Part shown: positions 4,780-29,116 of the stretch, piece after piece
Numbering within the stretch: position 1 is the first letter of the stretch
Layout of the letters: the number at the start of each line of letters is the position of its first letter
DNA from: Sedimentisphaerales bacterium
GTDB lineage: Bacteria; Planctomycetota; Phycisphaerae; Sedimentisphaerales; SM23-30
Direction: 5' to 3' (one strand)
DNA length: 64,000 nt
Assembly: GCA_963666285.1 (NCBI GenBank)
Contig: OY762711.1
The notes under the pieces: model-generated
Database searches by the model: none
What the model saw: only the letters and a program-made list of their open reading frames with translations
Told to the model about the DNA's origin: nothing
Position numbers and translations under genes: made by a program

Positions 4780-6924
4780 CTACAAAGACCTGATCAGCAT
4801 TGCCAGAAGCAGGCTGCGGTCTATTATGCTCGCACGCACAATCTTTTCTTTCCTGCTTTCATCCCATTCACCAAGCGGCCCCATCCCGCCAATTCGCGGT
4901 TTATCTCCTTTTACATTACATAACTCAGATGACGACCAGCGATGCTCCGGTTTTACCCTTACATCAATAGACTTGGCAACAGATTTAGTAGCCTCAAATA
5001 AAGCGTCATTTTTGTCACATTGCGGCATAGGTAACCGATGTATGCCGCCATCAAAAATTACCTCTATATCTTTCTTAAGTTTACCGGGAGAAGCCAGCTT
5101 ACGGACACGTTTATCAATACTGTCGAAAGATTCCAGGCAGTTAAACCTTACACTCAACCCGGCAGAGCCGAAAGCCGTAGCCCGAAAAATATTTGACTTA
5201 AACGAGATATCATATGGTGATATCACAACCGTATCATCATTTTGCGATAGTTCACTGATATTCATCAAAGTTTTATTGAACAGAGTTGAAACAGAGACAA
5301 CTTTTTCCGGTTCGATATTATTTTTTAACCTGATTGTATATCGATATGAAGCAGAACCCGAACGCGATGTTACAATACCTCCATCCATTGTGCCTCCGTG
5401 CATACCAATAATATAGTTTGCATTTAATGACTTAGCATCTATTGCCGGGCCGGAATATTTCCCGTTCAGGGTATCATCTGTCGATAGCATAATGCCAACT
5501 TTTTTCTTCTTTAAGCTGCGAGCAAATTTAAGAGCCTGAAGAGCCGCTACACAAACAGCAATTCCACCTTTATTGTCCCAGATACCGGTGCCGGAAATAT
5601 ACCTGTCAGATTCAGAGTAATACAAATGATTGGAAATCCCTACCCTGGTATCAAGAGAAAGCATAATAAGTACATCCAGATGTTCATCATAAGAATTGGT
5701 AAAAAACATAGGATTACCAACTTCAATCTGCGGGTATACCTGATATGTAAAACCAAGCTGGCTAAGCTCTGACTGTACCATCTGGGAACATTTATTTACA
5801 CCTTCTGTATTACGGACATATGTATTAATATTTACAAGCTTCTTTAAAAATTTCTCTGTCTGCGGCTGCCGACCTCGCAGGAAAGTTCTCAACCTGCTGT
5901 GCAGCGGTGTCTTTACTGATTTGGGGCTTGGTGTTTCAGCCGGAAAGTCTGTAAAATAGCGAATCGTCGCGACATCAAGCATTTTTGTCACCATCGACTG
6001 ATAATCATAACCGGCAACCTGGGCAGCATTGAAATACGAGCCTGTCAGGCCAAGACTGGCCATCGAGTTAATCTCCAGCAAGAAAATGTTATCCTGTTGG
6101 TCCATACGAATATCTACCCTGGCGAAATCACGGAGGTCAAGAGCCTTAAACGCATCCCTACTTAATTTAGCCATCTTTTCAGCTATCTCTTCGGATATAT
6201 TCGCAGGACATATTTTATTGCGAGGTCGCTGTTTCTTATCACCCTCGGTCTGGATAGCATCGGGGTCATTTTCAAGATCTATTTCAAGAACCGGAAAGGT
6301 CTCAACCGGTGAGTTCCCCAATATCCCGACGCAAAATTCCCTACCTCTGATAAATTGTTCAACCAGGGCCTGCTGTTGAAACTCAGTAATAATAAAATGG
6401 ACAGCCTCCTTCAAATCCTGCTCGTTATAAACAACCTTCAAGCCAAAAGAAACGCTCTCCATCTTGGGCTTTACTATCACAGGATACTTAACCGACGACA
6501 TATCATCATTAGGCGTGCTGAATACCCAATAGTCAGGAGTAGGTAATCCGTTATTTTTCCAGATAACTTTGGTCAAAACTTTATCAAGGGCAAGTGCATG
6601 TCCGGCAGGTGAGGAACCGACGTAAGGTATTCCCAGCATTTCCAGTAGTGACGGGATATGCGTGTATCTGCATTCTCCCTGGATACCATAAGCCATATTA
6701 AAGACCATACCCATTTGTTCGCCTTCGATCACTCTGGGCATAAATTCTTCGAGCCTCTCGATAATATATTTATTACCGTCAAGAACCGCGACATTATGCC
6801 CAACATTCTCCAGGCATTTCGCAACCCTGAGTACAGTTTTTTCTGAATAAGTTTCCTTATTCTGCATTCCAAGCTGGTTAATAACACCACTCATATCCTT
6901 GTTGTGAATGATAGCGACTTTCAT
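4780..6924 (-). CDS. Fusion protein: N-terminal D-alanine--D-alanine ligase-like ATP-grasp domain plus C-terminal M20-family metallopeptidase (DapE/ArgE-like) domain
   Basis: The N-terminal 330 aa carry Ddl hallmarks (VFNMAYGIQGECRY..LLEMLGIPYVGSSPAGHALALDK, ..LLEINSMASLG..). The C-terminal 380 aa carry M20 hallmarks (..GIWDNKGGIAVCVAALQALK.., GMHGGTMDGG). Confidence 0.6.
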   Translation of the reverse strand: MKVAIIHNKDMSGVINQLGMQNKETYSEKTVLRVAKCLENVGHNVAVLDGNKYIIERLEEFMPRVIEGEQMGMVFNMAYGIQGECRYTHIPSLLEMLGIPYVGSSPAGHALALDKVLTKVIWKNNGLPTPDYWVFSTPNDDMSSVKYPVIVKPKMESVSFGLKVVYNEQDLKEAVHFIITEFQQQALVEQFIRGREFCVGILGNSPVETFPVLEIDLENDPDAIQTEGDKKQRPRNKICPANISEEIAEKMAKLSRDAFKALDLRDFARVDIRMDQQDNIFLLEINSMASLGLTGSYFNAAQVAGYDYQSMVTKMLDVATIRYFTDFPAETPSPKSVKTPLHSRLRTFLRGRQPQTEKFLKKLVNINTYVRNTEGVNKCSQMVQSELSQLGFTYQVYPQIEVGNPMFFTNSYDEHLDVLIMLSLDTRVGISNHLYYSESDRYISGTGIWDNKGGIAVCVAALQALKFARSLKKKKVGIMLSTDDTLNGKYSGPAIDAKSLNANYIIGMHGGTMDGGIVTSRSGSASYRYTIRLKNNIEPEKVVSVSTLFNKTLMNISELSQNDDTVVISPYDISFKSNIFRATAFGSAGLSVRFNCLESFDSIDKRVRKLASPGKLKKDIEVIFDGGIHRLPMPQCDKNDALFEATKSVAKSIDVRVKPEHRWSSSELCNVKGDKPRIGGMGPLGEWDESRKEKIVRASIIDRSLLLAMLIRSL

Positions 6925-24474: not shown

Positions 24475-24900
24475 CTATTTGGGAAATATCCCTGTCGGCT
24501 CCAGGTTAAATTTCGAAAATGACCTCAGTACAGCCTTTCCCATTCTTTTAAGATATGATACTAGAAGCGGCTGACTGTAATCATGATGGCTTAGCAGACT
24601 CAACGCAAATGCAAGCTGAGTCAGTGAAACATTATAAAATGGCGGATCACATACGATAATATCGAATCTTTCAGTTATCCATTCCGGCTTGAGCAGGTCA
24701 TACCTCCGGTAGCCTCGCAGATCGCTAAACCTTTCATCAATATCGAGTACGGTAACATCAACAGACCTCTCACCTAGCTTCTTACCCAGCATCGGACAGC
24801 AGATACAGCATGGCCTTTCCCAGTTTAACAATAAATCCGCTAATAGTTCCAGTGATTCATCATCGAAAAAGTATTGTTCATTTTTATGATTTTCGTCCAT
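24475..24900 (-). CDS. Compact RsmD/N6-methylase-like putative SAM-dependent methyltransferase (DPPF motif)
   Basis: 141 aa. ..CCICCPMLGKKLG..VTVLDID..FDIIVCDPPFYNV parallels RsmD motif I (DCFAGSGALG), motif II (LIEMD) and motif IV (FVDPPF). Lies 3 nt downstream of the prfH stop. Confidence 0.35.
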   Translation of the reverse strand: MDENHKNEQYFFDDESLELLADLLLNWERPCCICCPMLGKKLGERSVDVTVLDIDERFSDLRGYRRYDLLKPEWITERFDIIVCDPPFYNVSLTQLAFALSLLSHHDYSQPLLVSYLKRMGKAVLRSFSKFNLEPTGIFPK

Positions 24901-24903
24901 AAC

Positions 24904-25530
24904 CTACCTGACCTCTTTAAATTTCTCGCCCCTGAAAACTCGAACCGGGTTACCTCGTTCAAGATTTCCATGCCCGGCCCACCTGCTCTGCTGATTTTCT
25001 GCTTTCATATTATAATTATGCTCTTCCAGCTTTTCATTCAAATTTCGCAAAGCCAGCTTACGGTTCATATGCTGACAGCGGCTACCACTTGCCATTGTCG
25101 AAATTCCAGTCGGCACATGAGTCACCCGTATCGCCGATTCGGTTTTATTAACATGCTGTCCGCCCGGCCCTGATGACCGCATTGTCTCAAATCGAAGGTC
25201 TTTACTGTTCAACTCCAACTCATCCGGCACCTGGCATAACTCAACACCGACAAACCAGTTTTTCCTTTTATGGTTAGGTCGATATTGACTTTGCCCGGTC
25301 CACTGCACTGTACCGGTCCAGCTGTCGATAAGACCAGTAAGCCCCTCCCCTTTAATAGAGATCAAGGCTGACTTAAAAATTTCCGACCGGTTTCCCGGCA
25401 CAAATTCCAATACCTCCGCATTGCCGCCTATCGCCAATACTTCTCTGCAAATAGCTTCAACAATTCTTGCAACAACCCAGCAGCATTCGTCCGGCCCACG
25501 ACCGGATGTAACCTGTAACCAGTATTCCAC
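24904..25530 (-). CDS. prfH: Peptide chain release factor H-like protein (RF-H)
   Basis: 208 aa. GGQ motif SGPGGQHVNKTESAIRVTHVPTGI. The N-terminus LQVTSGRGPDECCWVV resembles E. coli PrfH (LQLSSAQGPEECCLAV). No codon-recognition domain, which is the PrfH architecture. Confidence 0.75.
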   Translation of the reverse strand: MEYWLQVTSGRGPDECCWVVARIVEAICREVLAIGGNAEVLEFVPGNRSEIFKSALISIKGEGLTGLIDSWTGTVQWTGQSQYRPNHKRKNWFVGVELCQVPDELELNSKDLRFETMRSSGPGGQHVNKTESAIRVTHVPTGISTMASGSRCQHMNRKLALRNLNEKLEEHNYNMKAENQQSRWAGHGNLERGNPVRVFRGEKFKEVR

Positions 25531-25551: not shown

Positions 25552-27327
25552 TCAATGCCGTCTGGCATAATATAAATCCTCATTTTCAGCCCACCGTCTA
25601 ATTATAGCTTTTTCTTCATCTTTGGCAAACCTGTTATACAAACCTCTCACCTGGCATATTTCCTTTTTTGAAATATATACTTCAATCGTCAGGCATTTTT
25701 TCCGCTCGGATTCGGTTTCCAGCTCCATCGACCATATCGAACTCTTTCCCTTATTACATGAGTGAGCATATGTTGCTACACAATGACGAAGCTTTCGACC
25801 CTCAGTTATCAGTTCCCGGCTGGTGACCAGCTCTGAGATTCGCCAGACTCTCATATTATTATGTTCGCATTCTCCTTCTATATAATTAAACGGAGCTATA
25901 CCACTAAACTCCCATTTCAAATCGCTTACACCTGACTCTTTACCAAGTCTGTTATGCCAGTTCTTCACCGCTCTTAACAGCCTGCCAACTGTACGGCCCT
26001 TCATCGAAAATTCAGGCTGCGCCGGGCCGCGATTTTCCGCCACACCCCTATCAACAAACACTATCTGGTCTTCATATTTCTGATTCCAGATATAGTCTAT
26101 TACCGGCCCGACATAAACAACATCCAGCATAGGGTTACGAGCGAGAAATTCGATAACCTTAACCCAGAACTCATCATCTCTGAAATCATCTTTCAAGCGA
26201 GTTTCTACTATAGCATCTGCCAGCCTCTCATCCCCTCCGGCCGCCATAACCTGGCCCCATCGAAAAGCCTCTTCAATAGAATAACTATCAGGAGCGGTAA
26301 GAAAATAATGTGCCGTTTTCTTTGTCATTTTAATCGGCAATGATTTATTATTACGTATATTCTTACCAATCCCAATCTGCTTATACACTTCCTGGTATAA
26401 TTCATTGCCTGTAAGCCATGCCTTATCCATAAATTCCGGCACATCATACCTGGCCCACAAATGCCTCAACAAAGAGCAGAACTGCTTATTTCGATTATGT
26501 GTAGTAACCTTCCATTCATTAAGCGGCCTGATCCAGCTGTCCCTGCCTTTAACAATTTCAAAAATAGCCTTTACGTACAAAGGATCATGACAAACCTTAC
26601 TCCTTGCATCAATATACCTGAATATATCATATATATTTTTTCGATTGGCTGAGTTTGCAAAACCTTCATAAATTACTTTTGCAATTTCAGATTTCAAACT
26701 CTGCTCGTTTAATTTATTTTCCCGCGCAGCTGCTATCAGCTTTTTAAAGTTTCGTACCCGCTTATCCTTTGCCAGTAATTTACCACTGTCTTTCTCTCCG
26801 CTGTCAATCCCTGATATTATTTTCTTAAATGCTCCATCACGCTCTTTTGCCAGGTTCAGGTTGCCGCCCATATCAACACCTTCGGCACTACAGCGTAAAC
26901 AATACATATGCTTTACTATAAGGTGCTCATTTGCAACGGTTATCGTTTTAAGACGACGTTTCCCTATTCGCCCATCAAGCATACCGACAGCTTTTATGAT
27001 CAGGTTTCTCGACCGCAATATTTCATCTATACCAAGGGTTAGATATTCTTCCAACGACCTGGCCAGCCTCAAATTCGTAAAGCTTGGCGTTTCATATCGA
27101 AAGTTATCCTGTCCCGAATAATACCACTCTACTTCTTCAGAATAACATTCATAGTCGCTGACATATACCGCAGCTGAACTTCTCTTCGGGCCTCTTTTAT
27201 CAATTGCAATCCACGCCTTATTCCAGTAACTGGAATAGTAATGATTATCAATTCCAAAACTTATTCGACCTCTTACCGATCCGGCCAAACAGCCGTATAT
27301 TCTTTTTTGTATCTGATTCCATTTCAT
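25552..27327 (-). CDS. Large uncharacterised protein with a C-terminal PcfJ-like domain
   Basis: 591 aa. C-terminal ..LRHCVATYAHSCNKGKSSIWSM.. fits the PcfJ-like signature (HCV..Y...C..G..I.S). The N-terminal 400 aa are unassigned. Sits between rtcB and prfH in the same orientation. Confidence 0.5.
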   Translation of the reverse strand: MKWNQIQKRIYGCLAGSVRGRISFGIDNHYYSSYWNKAWIAIDKRGPKRSSAAVYVSDYECYSEEVEWYYSGQDNFRYETPSFTNLRLARSLEEYLTLGIDEILRSRNLIIKAVGMLDGRIGKRRLKTITVANEHLIVKHMYCLRCSAEGVDMGGNLNLAKERDGAFKKIISGIDSGEKDSGKLLAKDKRVRNFKKLIAAARENKLNEQSLKSEIAKVIYEGFANSANRKNIYDIFRYIDARSKVCHDPLYVKAIFEIVKGRDSWIRPLNEWKVTTHNRNKQFCSLLRHLWARYDVPEFMDKAWLTGNELYQEVYKQIGIGKNIRNNKSLPIKMTKKTAHYFLTAPDSYSIEEAFRWGQVMAAGGDERLADAIVETRLKDDFRDDEFWVKVIEFLARNPMLDVVYVGPVIDYIWNQKYEDQIVFVDRGVAENRGPAQPEFSMKGRTVGRLLRAVKNWHNRLGKESGVSDLKWEFSGIAPFNYIEGECEHNNMRVWRISELVTSRELITEGRKLRHCVATYAHSCNKGKSSIWSMELETESERKKCLTIEVYISKKEICQVRGLYNRFAKDEEKAIIRRWAENEDLYYARRH

Positions 27328-27446
27328 TTTTTGATCTTCTATATATATAAAAAGGATAAATTTCTTTGTTATTTACAAGCCATAATTTTATTAATACTTT
27401 TTGCATATTAAACTCCTGTTACACCCTGGGCTTAAACCCAATATTT

Positions 27447-27480
27447 GTTTTGAAATCTATTATCTTATACTGACTCAAAT
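27447..27480. promoter_or_regulatory. Perfect 12-bp inverted repeat with a 10-nt spacer between rtcB and the PcfJ-like gene (operator or intra-operon hairpin)
   Basis: TATCTTATACTG-ACTCAAATGC-CAGTATAAGATA, in the 171-nt gap inside the minus-strand operon. Confidence 0.3.
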
Positions 27481-27498
27481 GCCAGTATAAGATATACA

Positions 27499-28908
27499 CT
27501 AATCTTCCGGCCGTTCACCTGCCGGTGCCATCTTAACGATCTTTGGGTCAAACCTGGCAATCTTCTCTACCAGGTCACTCTGGGCCGACATTACCTCATC
27601 GATATTCTTATACGCCATCGGCACCTCGTCAAGCCCGGCAGTTAATACTCGCACACCATTGGCTTCCAGGAACTTCTTCGCATCATGCCAGGTATAAGTT
27701 TCCTTCGCCTTCTTACGGCTCATCCGGCGACCTGCACCATGTGACGCCGAGTTCAGCGACTTCGGATTACCTTTACCACGCACTACATAACCCGGCGTTG
27801 CCATCGAACCGGGAATAATACCCAACGCACCGACACCGGCCGGGGTCGCTCCTTTACGATGTACAATCACTTCCTTGTCATCATGCTCTTCCTTCCAGGC
27901 AAAGTTATGATGGTTTTCGACATCCAGCAAAACCTTAACACCAAGATTCCTGGCAATATGCTTATGCACCAGTTCATGGTTGGCCGCGGCATAACGACCC
28001 ATCAGCTCCATCGCACGCCAGTATTCCTGACCTTCATCGCTGTCAATATCCAGCCATGCCAGGTGCATCAGTTCCTTTGGCAGTTCAAGATGTCGTTTCA
28101 TCGCAAGTTTACTATAATACGTAGCTATCTCGTTACCAGTACCGCGGCTGCCGCTATGGCTCAACAATGCCAGGTAGGTGCCGGCTTCCAGTCCGAGATC
28201 ATACTTTTCAAGCGTCAAAGTACCAAACTCGACAAAATGATTTCCGCTGCCGCTGGTACCCAGCTGGCTCCAGGCCTTATCCTTCAAACTCTTGACAGTT
28301 GAGCTGAATGTCCAATCTTCATCCATGACATCATGCTCACGTCTGCGCTTAAAAGTCGCTCCTACACCAAAACGAGTCTCCATTTCTAACGCATTCTTCA
28401 GCAAACCAAACTGGCCGTTAATCGCTGATACCGGCATATCCAAAACCGTCATCTTCATCCGGCAGGCAATATCAACTCCAACTGCATAAGGAATCACTGC
28501 CCCTTCCGTTGCCAGTACCCCGCCGATAGGCAGGCCATATCCGGTATGAGCGTCCGGCATCAACGCACCTCGCACCGAAATCGGAAGCTTACACGCATTC
28601 TCCATCTGCTCAATCGCAGAATCTTCCATGTCATCACCCCAGCGTTTATAATACGCCGGACTCTGACGAGGTACATACATGGCTTGTGCTGCTTTGGTCC
28701 GATTCAATACCTGTGCCGTTGCACCAAAAATCTCATCGTTAAAATATTTCTCTGCATTTGCCACTAAATCCGCAACCTTCTCACGCAGGACACTCTTGTT
28801 CTTACCGCGGCCTTCGTCGGAACGAACCCACCGCATGATCGCCTTTTTGATAAGGTCCATCGCCTCACCCTTCGGCACTCCAAGATTTAATAATTCTCTG
28901 GTCTTCAT
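27499..28908 (-). CDS. rtcB: RNA-splicing ligase RtcB (3'-phosphate/5'-OH RNA ligase)
   Basis: Conserved blocks ..AVGVDIAC.., SGNHFVEFG, HNFAW..HRKGATPAG..IIPGSM..SASHGAGR, PMAYKNIDEVM. The start is taken at MKTRELL (GGGAAA Shine-Dalgarno); the track begins at an upstream GTG. Confidence 0.85.
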   Translation of the reverse strand: MKTRELLNLGVPKGEAMDLIKKAIMRWVRSDEGRGKNKSVLREKVADLVANAEKYFNDEIFGATAQVLNRTKAAQAMYVPRQSPAYYKRWGDDMEDSAIEQMENACKLPISVRGALMPDAHTGYGLPIGGVLATEGAVIPYAVGVDIACRMKMTVLDMPVSAINGQFGLLKNALEMETRFGVGATFKRRREHDVMDEDWTFSSTVKSLKDKAWSQLGTSGSGNHFVEFGTLTLEKYDLGLEAGTYLALLSHSGSRGTGNEIATYYSKLAMKRHLELPKELMHLAWLDIDSDEGQEYWRAMELMGRYAAANHELVHKHIARNLGVKVLLDVENHHNFAWKEEHDDKEVIVHRKGATPAGVGALGIIPGSMATPGYVVRGKGNPKSLNSASHGAGRRMSRKKAKETYTWHDAKKFLEANGVRVLTAGLDEVPMAYKNIDEVMSAQSDLVEKIARFDPKIVKMAPAGERPED

Positions 28909-29116
28909 AATATCAATTTCCCTTATCTCAAACATCTGTAAAATTATTGTCTTTAATAAAAATAGTATCACCTCGCGAAGCGATCATTATCCACCCTCGC
29001 CGTAGGCGTATCCTTTACTGTTGCCTCATCACTTCTGTCCACTGCCTTTTTTTTAGAGTTGACACAACTCTCTGGAACTCATCCAAAAGTCTTTTGGATA
29101 CATTCGACATTCAGTT

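Follow-up and report, generated by a model that had tools for sequence, protein, structure and literature searches.

What does a gene of the PcfJ family do between the genes for the ligase RtcB and release factor H (PrfH)? No pathway other than RtcB-PrfH is currently known to undo nuclease damage at the decoding centre of the ribosome. RtcB2-PrfH is described as a module of two genes whose products rescue ribosomes cut at this site and religate them (PMC9304027, PMC9223846, PMC13166195, PMC12829566), and Baranov 2006 (PMC1586002) reported rtcB to lie directly upstream of prfH in every case, the two genes being translationally coupled. In the stretch analysed here, 64,000 nucleotides of contig OY762711.1 from a Sedimentisphaerales bacterium (assembly GCA_963666285.1; hereafter the window), a true PrfH gene and an RtcB ligase gene likewise lie on one strand, but a 1776-nt open reading frame (ORF) and a 171-nt spacer split them. 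This ORF, the target of our analysis, probably encodes an undescribed third component of the RtcB/PrfH repair machinery. In wider terms we consider it fairly likely that the protein serves as a conserved accessory subunit in modules that repair the translation apparatus and are built around RtcB.

The initial annotation of this DNA had placed a 591-aa ORF between rtcB and prfH, and this arrangement was borne out, with rtcB upstream and prfH downstream on the same strand; its label of a 'giant protein' overstated a length of 591 aa. The gene, its parts and its two neighbours are as follows.

25552..27327, minus strand: target ORF (PcfJ-family gene), ATG start, 591 aa, with an SF0329 N-terminal domain, a conserved helical core and a PcfJ C-terminal domain
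26890..27324, minus strand: SF0329-family domain of the target, aa 2-146 (PF25753, E 6.7e-20, and NF049912)
26077..26775, minus strand: all-helical core of the target, aa ~185-417, a region covered by no Pfam model
25567..26070, minus strand: alpha/beta PcfJ region of the target, aa ~420-587, predicted to have a GNAT-like fold; the Pfam PcfJ match spans nt 25603-25842
27499..28971, minus strand: rtcB, long subfamily (Pfam RtcB PF01139, E 6.9e-89, 299 bits)
24904..25530, minus strand: prfH, release factor H (TIGR03072, 255 bits against a cut-off of 166.65; GGQ motif present)

The N-terminus of the target, MKWNQIQKRI, aligns with the starts of homologues (MKWNQIKKRI, MKWSQLKKRI), so the ATG start is correct. 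The PcfJ-like domain that had first been recognised by eye was recovered with a hidden Markov model: PF14284 matched aa 496-575 (E 2.8e-14, 53.6 bits against a cut-off of 25), and the absence of a match, which the initial annotation had named as the outcome that would speak against it, did not occur. Only profile positions 67-146 of 147 aligned to the target. The motif reads H515-C516-V517..Y520...C524..G527...I531-W532-S533, and H515, C516, V517, C524 and I531 are invariant across 85 homologues. Other invariant positions of the PcfJ region are Q559, R561-G562 and R566, and T547, E549 and N565 are kept in at least 90% of the sequences. The N-terminal 400 aa had been thought to match nothing recognisable. 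This holds for the helical core in that no Pfam model covers it, but not for aa 2-146, which cover the full PF25753 profile (72.3 bits, cut-off 27) and also match NF049912 (69.2 bits, cut-off 60). In the alignments, the helical core has its own invariant residues (W272, R288, G319-x-G321, H340, R356, Q359, D402 and D411), and N323, I324 and R325 are kept in at least 90% of the sequences.

A word-index search with the target retrieved 244 homologues of two architectures: a long form of ~590 aa with SF0329 and PcfJ, and a short form of ~480 aa that lacks SF0329 and often begins with a lysine-rich stretch (MAKKKK, MAKKKKK). Common to the family are the PcfJ domain and a helical region of ~200 residues outside the Pfam models. 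An exhaustive profile search, in which clusters are represented at 50% identity, returned 9961 clusters at E<=1e-3 and 2186 at E<=1e-30. All 33 of the C-terminal-domain homologues matched PF14284, and ten longer homologues checked for domain fusions carried only PcfJ or SF0329. The N-terminal 152 aa alone gave no match in the word-index search; a profile built from 13 N-domains did find SF0329 relatives. SF0329 also occurs as stand-alone proteins of 160-230 aa in unrelated contexts, and in the four contexts examined these stand-alone genes do not lie near RtcB or PrfH.

The association of the family with repair genes was assessed in 80 genome loci, 79 metagenome loci and 10 loci obtained with their DNA by exact-protein look-up (an eleventh is represented by a gene table only). 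The loci were scanned with the RtcB, PrfH and SPFH proteins of the window and with representative HNH, RlaP and other RtcB proteins, tRNA genes were called with ARAGORN, and homologues were collapsed at 90% identity into 118 non-redundant clusters. RtcB and/or PrfH was found within 6 kb in 27 of the 118 clusters (RtcB in 24, PrfH in 9), and in each of the 27 the partner shares the strand of the PcfJ gene; the median distance to that gene is 308 nt in the case of RtcB and 77 nt in that of PrfH. About one such cluster would be expected under a chance model that was made generous on purpose (p = 6e-25). The distribution relative to rtcB and prfH, which the initial annotation had proposed to check, is thus strongly non-random. 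Within the same distance, SPFH was present in 14 clusters, HNH in 10 and RlaP in 6, and at least five tRNA genes lay within 8 kb of the PcfJ gene in 11 clusters; SPFH, HNH, RlaP and tRNA arrays are all recognised components of RNA repair.

The two architectures keep different company. PrfH accompanies 8 of 20 long-form clusters versus 2 of 99 short-form clusters (Fisher p = 5.9e-6), and the short form goes with SPFH/Band-7, HNH, RlaP and tRNA arrays on its own strand. The gene order also varies. RtcB2-PrfH-PcfJ with 4-nt gene overlaps is found in L081/L082, and RtcB-PrfH-PcfJ also in P0017, P0024 and P0038; many long-form relatives directly follow a canonical RtcB2-PrfH pair. PcfJ-RtcB-PrfH occurs in L083 and L090, and RtcB-PcfJ-PrfH in the window and its closest relatives, L164 and L087. 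SPFH-PcfJ-RtcB with HNH and/or RlaP nearby is the order of about 15 gammaproteobacterial clusters and of L086 and L093, and P0046 (L165) retains PcfJ-PrfH beside an insertion sequence (IS) element. In several loci the stop codon of one gene overlaps the start codon of the next. At least three subfamilies are represented among the partner RtcB proteins: that of L081 is a true RtcB2 (448.6 bits for TIGR03073, 504.2 for PRK09588), and a type of 484-490 aa and one of 398 aa both score under the TIGR03073 cut-off. The RtcB of the window, at 141.7 bits for TIGR03073 (cut-off 271.8) and 175.9 for PRK09588 (cut-off 407), is by these scores outside the PrfH-associated RtcB2 subfamily, a further difference from the canonical operon. 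The proposal of an accessory factor for RtcB/PrfH-mediated repair therefore gains from both the HMM match and the linkage, but it needs a change of emphasis: PrfH goes specifically with the long form, and RtcB is the partner common to all linked loci.

Two of these lineages have further peculiarities. In L166-L169, contigs of P0017, only a fragment of 132 aa is left of the RtcB gene that precedes PrfH-PcfJ, and PrfH (188 aa) and the PcfJ-family protein (603 aa) are intact; this state was seen in all four P0017 contigs shown, of six that carry the protein. In L081/L082, which represent one lineage, a Fic-domain gene (5191-6240) ends 1 nt ahead of the RtcB2-PrfH-PcfJ operon. Fic enzymes AMPylate translation factors in some toxin systems.

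Several observations weigh against a repair role for the target. Most of the family has no linkage to repair genes: 30 clusters from Poribacteria, together with several further short-form clades, show none of the neighbours counted above and lack RtcB and PrfH within 6-8 kb, and some long forms also occur alone (L001-L005, P0042). The repair-gene linkage is clade-specific. The G+C content of the target gene (0.38-0.44) is somewhat lower than that of rtcB (0.49). Finally, RtcB2 and PrfH of E. coli are reported to repair colicin-E3-damaged ribosomes in vitro with no third protein (PMC9304027, PMC13166195), and a third factor is therefore dispensable for the core chemistry.

The SPFH-type loci bring the target family together with two further kinds of repair system. 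Besides a separate tRNA-like gene just upstream of SPFH, these loci contain same-strand arrays of 7-25 tRNA genes (L051, L058, L059, L063, L065, L075, L086, L106, L114 and L115), the largest being those of L065 with 25 genes and of L075, L114 and L115 with 20 each. In the gammaproteobacterial loci the SPFH-adjacent tRNA-like gene has a constant acceptor stem, GAAAGAT/CTCTTTC, and a variable anticodon (CAT, GAT or, in L074, TTA, a stop-codon reader); the L058 array includes a gene with a CTA anticodon. Band-7/b7a-tRNA/RtcB systems are attributed to Burroughs and Aravind 2016 in the passage of 10.1101/312249 that cites them, and cyanobacterial long tRNA arrays linked to HNH and rtcB are described as induced by translational stress (Santamaria-Gomez 2021, PMC8421152). 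The window and about 15 clusters resemble both in having SPFH, a tRNA-like gene next to it, RtcB and tRNA arrays, often with HNH and RlaP, the latter (PF10127 here) being an RNA-repair nucleotidyltransferase (PMC12776372). They differ in that a PcfJ-family gene stands between SPFH and RtcB in most loci, a gene unmentioned in the texts consulted for these systems. The SPFH-PcfJ-RtcB loci thus join the b7a-tRNA/Band-7/RtcB observations and those on long tRNA arrays, HNH and rtcB in one locus type.

The window itself fits the Band-7/b7a-tRNA/RtcB definition as given at second hand in 10.1101/312249, namely SPFH, an adjacent tRNA-like gene and RtcB. The relevant tRNA-like gene, Glu-ttc (32793-32867, minus strand), lies 240 nt upstream of SPFH and has an atypical T-loop, GGATCGTAACC; the RtcB gene lies 2.5 kb downstream of SPFH, and the SPFH protein is homologous, by tblastn and clustering, to that encoded upstream of PcfJ-RtcB in other loci. 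With nine tRNA genes in 3 kb, split by SPFH, the window stays below the tRNA array unit, defined in Tran 2016 (PMC4758250) as at least 20 tRNA genes at a density of at least 2 per kb. The genes form a run on one strand, from four tRNA genes through SPFH, five tRNA genes, rtcA, GFA, rtcB, the target and prfH to a methyltransferase gene, with rtcR divergent. The features of this run beyond rtcB, the target and prfH are listed here.

24475..24900, minus strand: DPPF-motif methyltransferase, 141 aa (PF10237), starting 3 nt after the prfH stop codon
29117..29554, minus strand: GFA/CENP-V-type zinc-domain protein (PF04828, E 3.3e-34), between rtcA and rtcB
29582..30622, minus strand: rtcA, RNA 3'-phosphate cyclase (PF01137, E 2.7e-81)
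30893..31390, minus strand: five tRNA genes (Leu-tag, Met, Pro, His, Leu-taa), between SPFH and rtcA
31449..32552, minus strand: SPFH/Band-7 protein (PF01145, E 1.8e-30)
32793..33927, minus strand: four tRNA genes (Leu-aag, Lys-ttt, Gln-ttg, Glu-ttc), between rtcR and SPFH
34064..34049, minus strand: sigma54-type promoter-like motif TGGCACGGCGGTTGTT, in the intergenic region between rtcR and the tRNA genes, facing the tRNA/repair cluster
34209..35801, plus strand: rtcR, CARF-type RtcR domain and sigma54 activator (PF06956, E 1.3e-78; PF00158, E 6e-51)

A divergent rtcR with CARF-type and sigma54-activator domains, rtcA and rtcB are also what the RtcR-regulated rtcBA operons of E. coli and Salmonella contain (PMC7790460, PMC9650030), and the candidate sigma54 motif may be a further resemblance; the window differs from them in adding tRNA genes, SPFH, GFA, the PcfJ-family gene, prfH and the methyltransferase gene. 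The motif TGGCACGGCGGTTGTT has one mismatch, and since the count of such motifs across the window is not above chance, only its position argues for it. The ORF called mechanically for rtcB begins with GTG at 28971, and the N-terminus of the 49%-identical RtcB of L086 aligns from M22; the exact 490-aa product was not found on look-up in the protein collection. The mechanical ORF is probably too long, and the alignment points to M22 (nt 28908) as the real start. No homologue of the DPPF-motif methyltransferase was found in 160 related loci. Its family, PF10237, is eEF1A-lysine/N6AMT2-like, and the enzyme might methylate the GGQ glutamine of PrfH or another translation factor. The GFA gene was not seen in the related loci. 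An Rfam match to the Y RNA-like YrlA (33798-33900, minus strand; 34.5 bits against a gathering threshold of 69) lies over tRNA-Lys and tRNA-Leu. Y RNAs are known RNA partners in Salmonella rsr-rtcBA operons; the match here probably reflects tRNA resemblance only.

Within the run, the spacers on the two sides of the target differ. On the downstream side, where the initial annotation had prfH 20 nt away, the close adjacency was confirmed but the gap is 21 nt; it carries a GAGGAG Shine-Dalgarno sequence ahead of the GTG start codon of prfH. On the upstream side, both the 171-nt gap to rtcB (27328..27498) and the perfect 12-bp inverted repeat that had been noticed in it are real, and the gap also holds part of a small ORF.

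27461-27472 and 27483-27494, minus strand: perfect 12-bp inverted repeat TATCTTATACTG/CAGTATAAGATA, with a 10-nt loop
27248..27406, minus strand: 52-codon upstream ORF with an AGGAG Shine-Dalgarno sequence, out of frame with the target and overlapping its start codon

The repeat lies directly past the rtcB stop codon, and its stem is A/U-rich and has no U-tract. By our estimate such a repeat is expected by chance in a 171-nt gap with a frequency of ~3e-4, and the folding of the gap RNA beats all 200 of 200 shuffles (z = -4.0). In the closest relative, L164, only ~21 nt separate the rtcB stop codon from the ATG of the homologue; the inverted repeat was absent from L164 and two other loci, and its arms have no other copy in the window. 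These absences rule it out as a conserved or dispersed element. Spacer, hairpin and 52-codon ORF are all lineage-specific, and the inverted repeat is therefore not part of the conserved system. As read from the sequence, the Shine-Dalgarno of the target itself is weak and the AGGAG of the upstream ORF strong. The small ORF could serve translational coupling or attenuation, or it could be a chance ORF in an AT-rich spacer.

The AlphaFold2 model of the protein, built from 85 sequences (mean pLDDT 82.6), begins with a small N-domain that is disordered in part, followed by a disordered linker (aa 163-182), a confidently predicted helical domain (aa ~185-417, pLDDT mostly >90) and an alpha/beta domain (aa ~420-587). 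The beta4-alpha3 loop of GNAT enzymes binds the pyrophosphate of coenzyme A (CoA), and their alpha2 forms a wall of the acceptor site. Judged by the order of secondary-structure elements in the model, Q559-x-R561-G562-x-x-N565-R566 would fall in the beta4-alpha3 loop, and H515-C516 and C524 would flank alpha2. Several results speak against membership of the GNAT superfamily. The structural similarity stays at Z < 8; a Foldseek search against the PDB gave no match at E<=0.001, and the family profile none among all PDB chains (best E 2.1). Scanned against Pfam at E<=10, 33 C-terminal domains gave only PcfJ and scattered noise, with no acetyltransferase family. GNAT motif A (Q/R-x-x-G-x-G/A) is incomplete in the target, where Q559-V-R-G562-L-Y (family consensus QVRGKR) matches at Q and G and not at the final G/A, and the loop is ~8 residues longer. 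The beta5-alpha4-beta6 half of the fold is missing. The domain is thus GNAT-like in the model, resembling GNAT at most in having a similar pocket, and is not filed as GNAT. Its many invariant polar residues fit a ligand-binding or catalytic role at least as well as the damage sensor or ribosome/RNA-binding adaptor that the initial annotation had suggested.

The analysis establishes gene neighbourhoods, domain content, fold similarity and conserved residues; the operon structure, any physical interaction, the ligand and a possible catalytic activity are our inference, which may take the form of the following scheme. The target would be co-transcribed, and probably co-translated, with RtcB and PrfH in a unit that looks to be under RtcR/sigma54 control. 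In this modular protein, the core (helical domain plus PcfJ alpha/beta domain) would go with the RtcB ligase whatever its subfamily, and the SF0329 N-module would be added in lineages in which ligase and PrfH act together on ribosomes that are stalled and damaged by a nuclease. The core may bind damaged RNA, either a cleaved tRNA or the 16S rRNA of a rescued subunit, or RtcB itself, through a GNAT-like pocket lined by the H-C...C, T/E and Q-x-R-G-x-x-N-R residues, and the break would be prepared or presented for ligation by RtcB once PrfH has released the peptide. Dedicated protein cofactors of RtcB ligases exist in Archease and, for eukaryotic RTCB, PYROXD1; they are a precedent for a cofactor of RtcB, and the comparison is one of analogy only.

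A rival to this scheme, in essence the adaptor idea of the initial annotation, makes the protein a purely structural adaptor or scaffold that tethers RtcB (and PrfH) to ribosomes or tRNA, with neither catalysis nor a small-molecule ligand. The large helical domain, the lysine-rich tails of the short forms, and a GNAT-like domain with neither the canonical CoA motif nor the C-terminal part of the fold would all suit such a protein, and Burroughs and Aravind proposed scaffold roles for other genes accreted to RFH-RtcB (TPR and charged helical proteins; PMC6514570). It would, however, leave the near-invariant cluster of H-C...C, T/E and Q-x-R-G..N-R to be accounted for; in the model this cluster would map to the cofactor/substrate site of GNAT, and such clustering is seen more often in ligand-binding or active sites than on docking surfaces. 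We hold a mere scaffold possible and rather doubtful. Another view, which we offer just as tentatively, makes the PcfJ-core an enzymatic repair component, whose truncated GNAT-like domain, with its invariant Cys/His site, would perform a distinct chemical step that is required in vivo in addition to RtcB and whose SF0329 module would couple it to PrfH-rescued ribosomes. Its substrates might be damaged tRNA, rRNA, peptidyl-tRNA or RtcB itself, and candidate steps are acyl transfer, end modification, and metal or nucleotide loading of the ligase.

Two further accounts would deny the target a part in repair. It could be cargo of a mobile element, such as an anti-defence gene from a plasmid or phage, that came to lie beside repair genes or travels with them on horizontally transferred islands. 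Phages and plasmids often carry PcfJ domains: four PHROG families, all annotated 'unknown function', have a C-terminal PcfJ domain, and PcfJ matches were found in 105 phage records and one Paenibacillus plasmid. A homologue with 40% identity over the core is encoded by a 595-kb uncultured phage (L174; LR756511.1, 8428-10975), directly preceded by an HNH-like ORF and with no RtcB or tRNA gene within 10 kb. In Poribacteria (L006-L072) the short-form gene stands beside an ABC sugar-transporter operon, near a VapBC-like pair, made up of a PIN-domain toxin gene and a small ORF upstream of it, and near the gene of a ~1000-aa DNA methyltransferase; one relative is flanked by IS elements. The G+C content below that of rtcB and the absence of the 171-nt spacer from relatives would also fit an inserted gene. 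Cargo would not be expected, however, to keep its place beside these genes, on the same strand, in four or more gene orders and with three or more RtcB subfamilies, in some cases with stop/start overlaps. Nor does the family appear mainly viral, with a single IMG/VR locus and the one huge-phage core homologue found; the PADLOC defence models gave no match to the target protein, and no integrase or IS element lies beside the gene in the window. We consider this account improbable. Still less probable, to the point of being very hard to sustain, is that the target itself causes the damage or acts as a regulator, for example by modifying aminoacyl- or peptidyl-tRNA or a ribosomal protein in the manner of a GNAT enzyme; PrfH and RtcB would reverse or buffer its effects, and the whole would be a toxin-plus-repair or stress-switch cassette. 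The protein has no sequence relationship to the GNAT-type modifier families and no antitoxin-like partner and is much larger than GNAT toxins, and its operon appears to be induced by RNA damage through RtcR.

An accessory subunit of RtcB-centred repair, which we prefer to these accounts, can be set against what has been described. The known RtcB2-PrfH system has two components, to which the window and its relatives add a conserved third. The main text of Burroughs and Aravind 2019 names four classes of RFH-RtcB accessory genes (TPR; Pol-beta nucleotidyltransferase; Zn-ribbon plus charged-helix; charged-helix; PMC6514570). The target resembles these, as presented there, in being a sporadic addition to a two-gene core, and differs in fitting none of the four, having no TPR, Pol-beta or Zn-ribbon domain and having detectable homologues. 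With PcfJ of the Enterococcus plasmid pCF10 and PF14284 it shares the C-terminal domain with the HC..Y...C..G..IW motif, but only the C-terminal half of the profile aligns, and the helical core and SF0329 are specific to the target subfamily. The literature searched yielded no function for any PcfJ protein, and it yielded no PcfJ-RtcB link, Burroughs and Aravind 2016 and the supplement of PMC6514570 being outside its scope. RtcB/PrfH and Band-7/tRNA/RtcB repair with an added conserved component is not described in the literature searched.

That a third gene has kept its link to RtcB through several rearrangements, and with ligases of three subfamilies, points towards a step or cofactor in vivo that the two-protein description lacks. 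PcfJ and SF0329, both large orphan families, would also be placed in a functional setting for the first time. The window also shows PrfH ribosome rescue, Band-7/b7a-tRNA/RtcB and stress-induced tRNA arrays, whose literatures have so far been treated separately, joined in one RtcR-flanked cluster. If the core is indeed an enzyme, this would be the first function for the PcfJ proteins of plasmids and phages, which would then protect translation from RNA-targeting defences.

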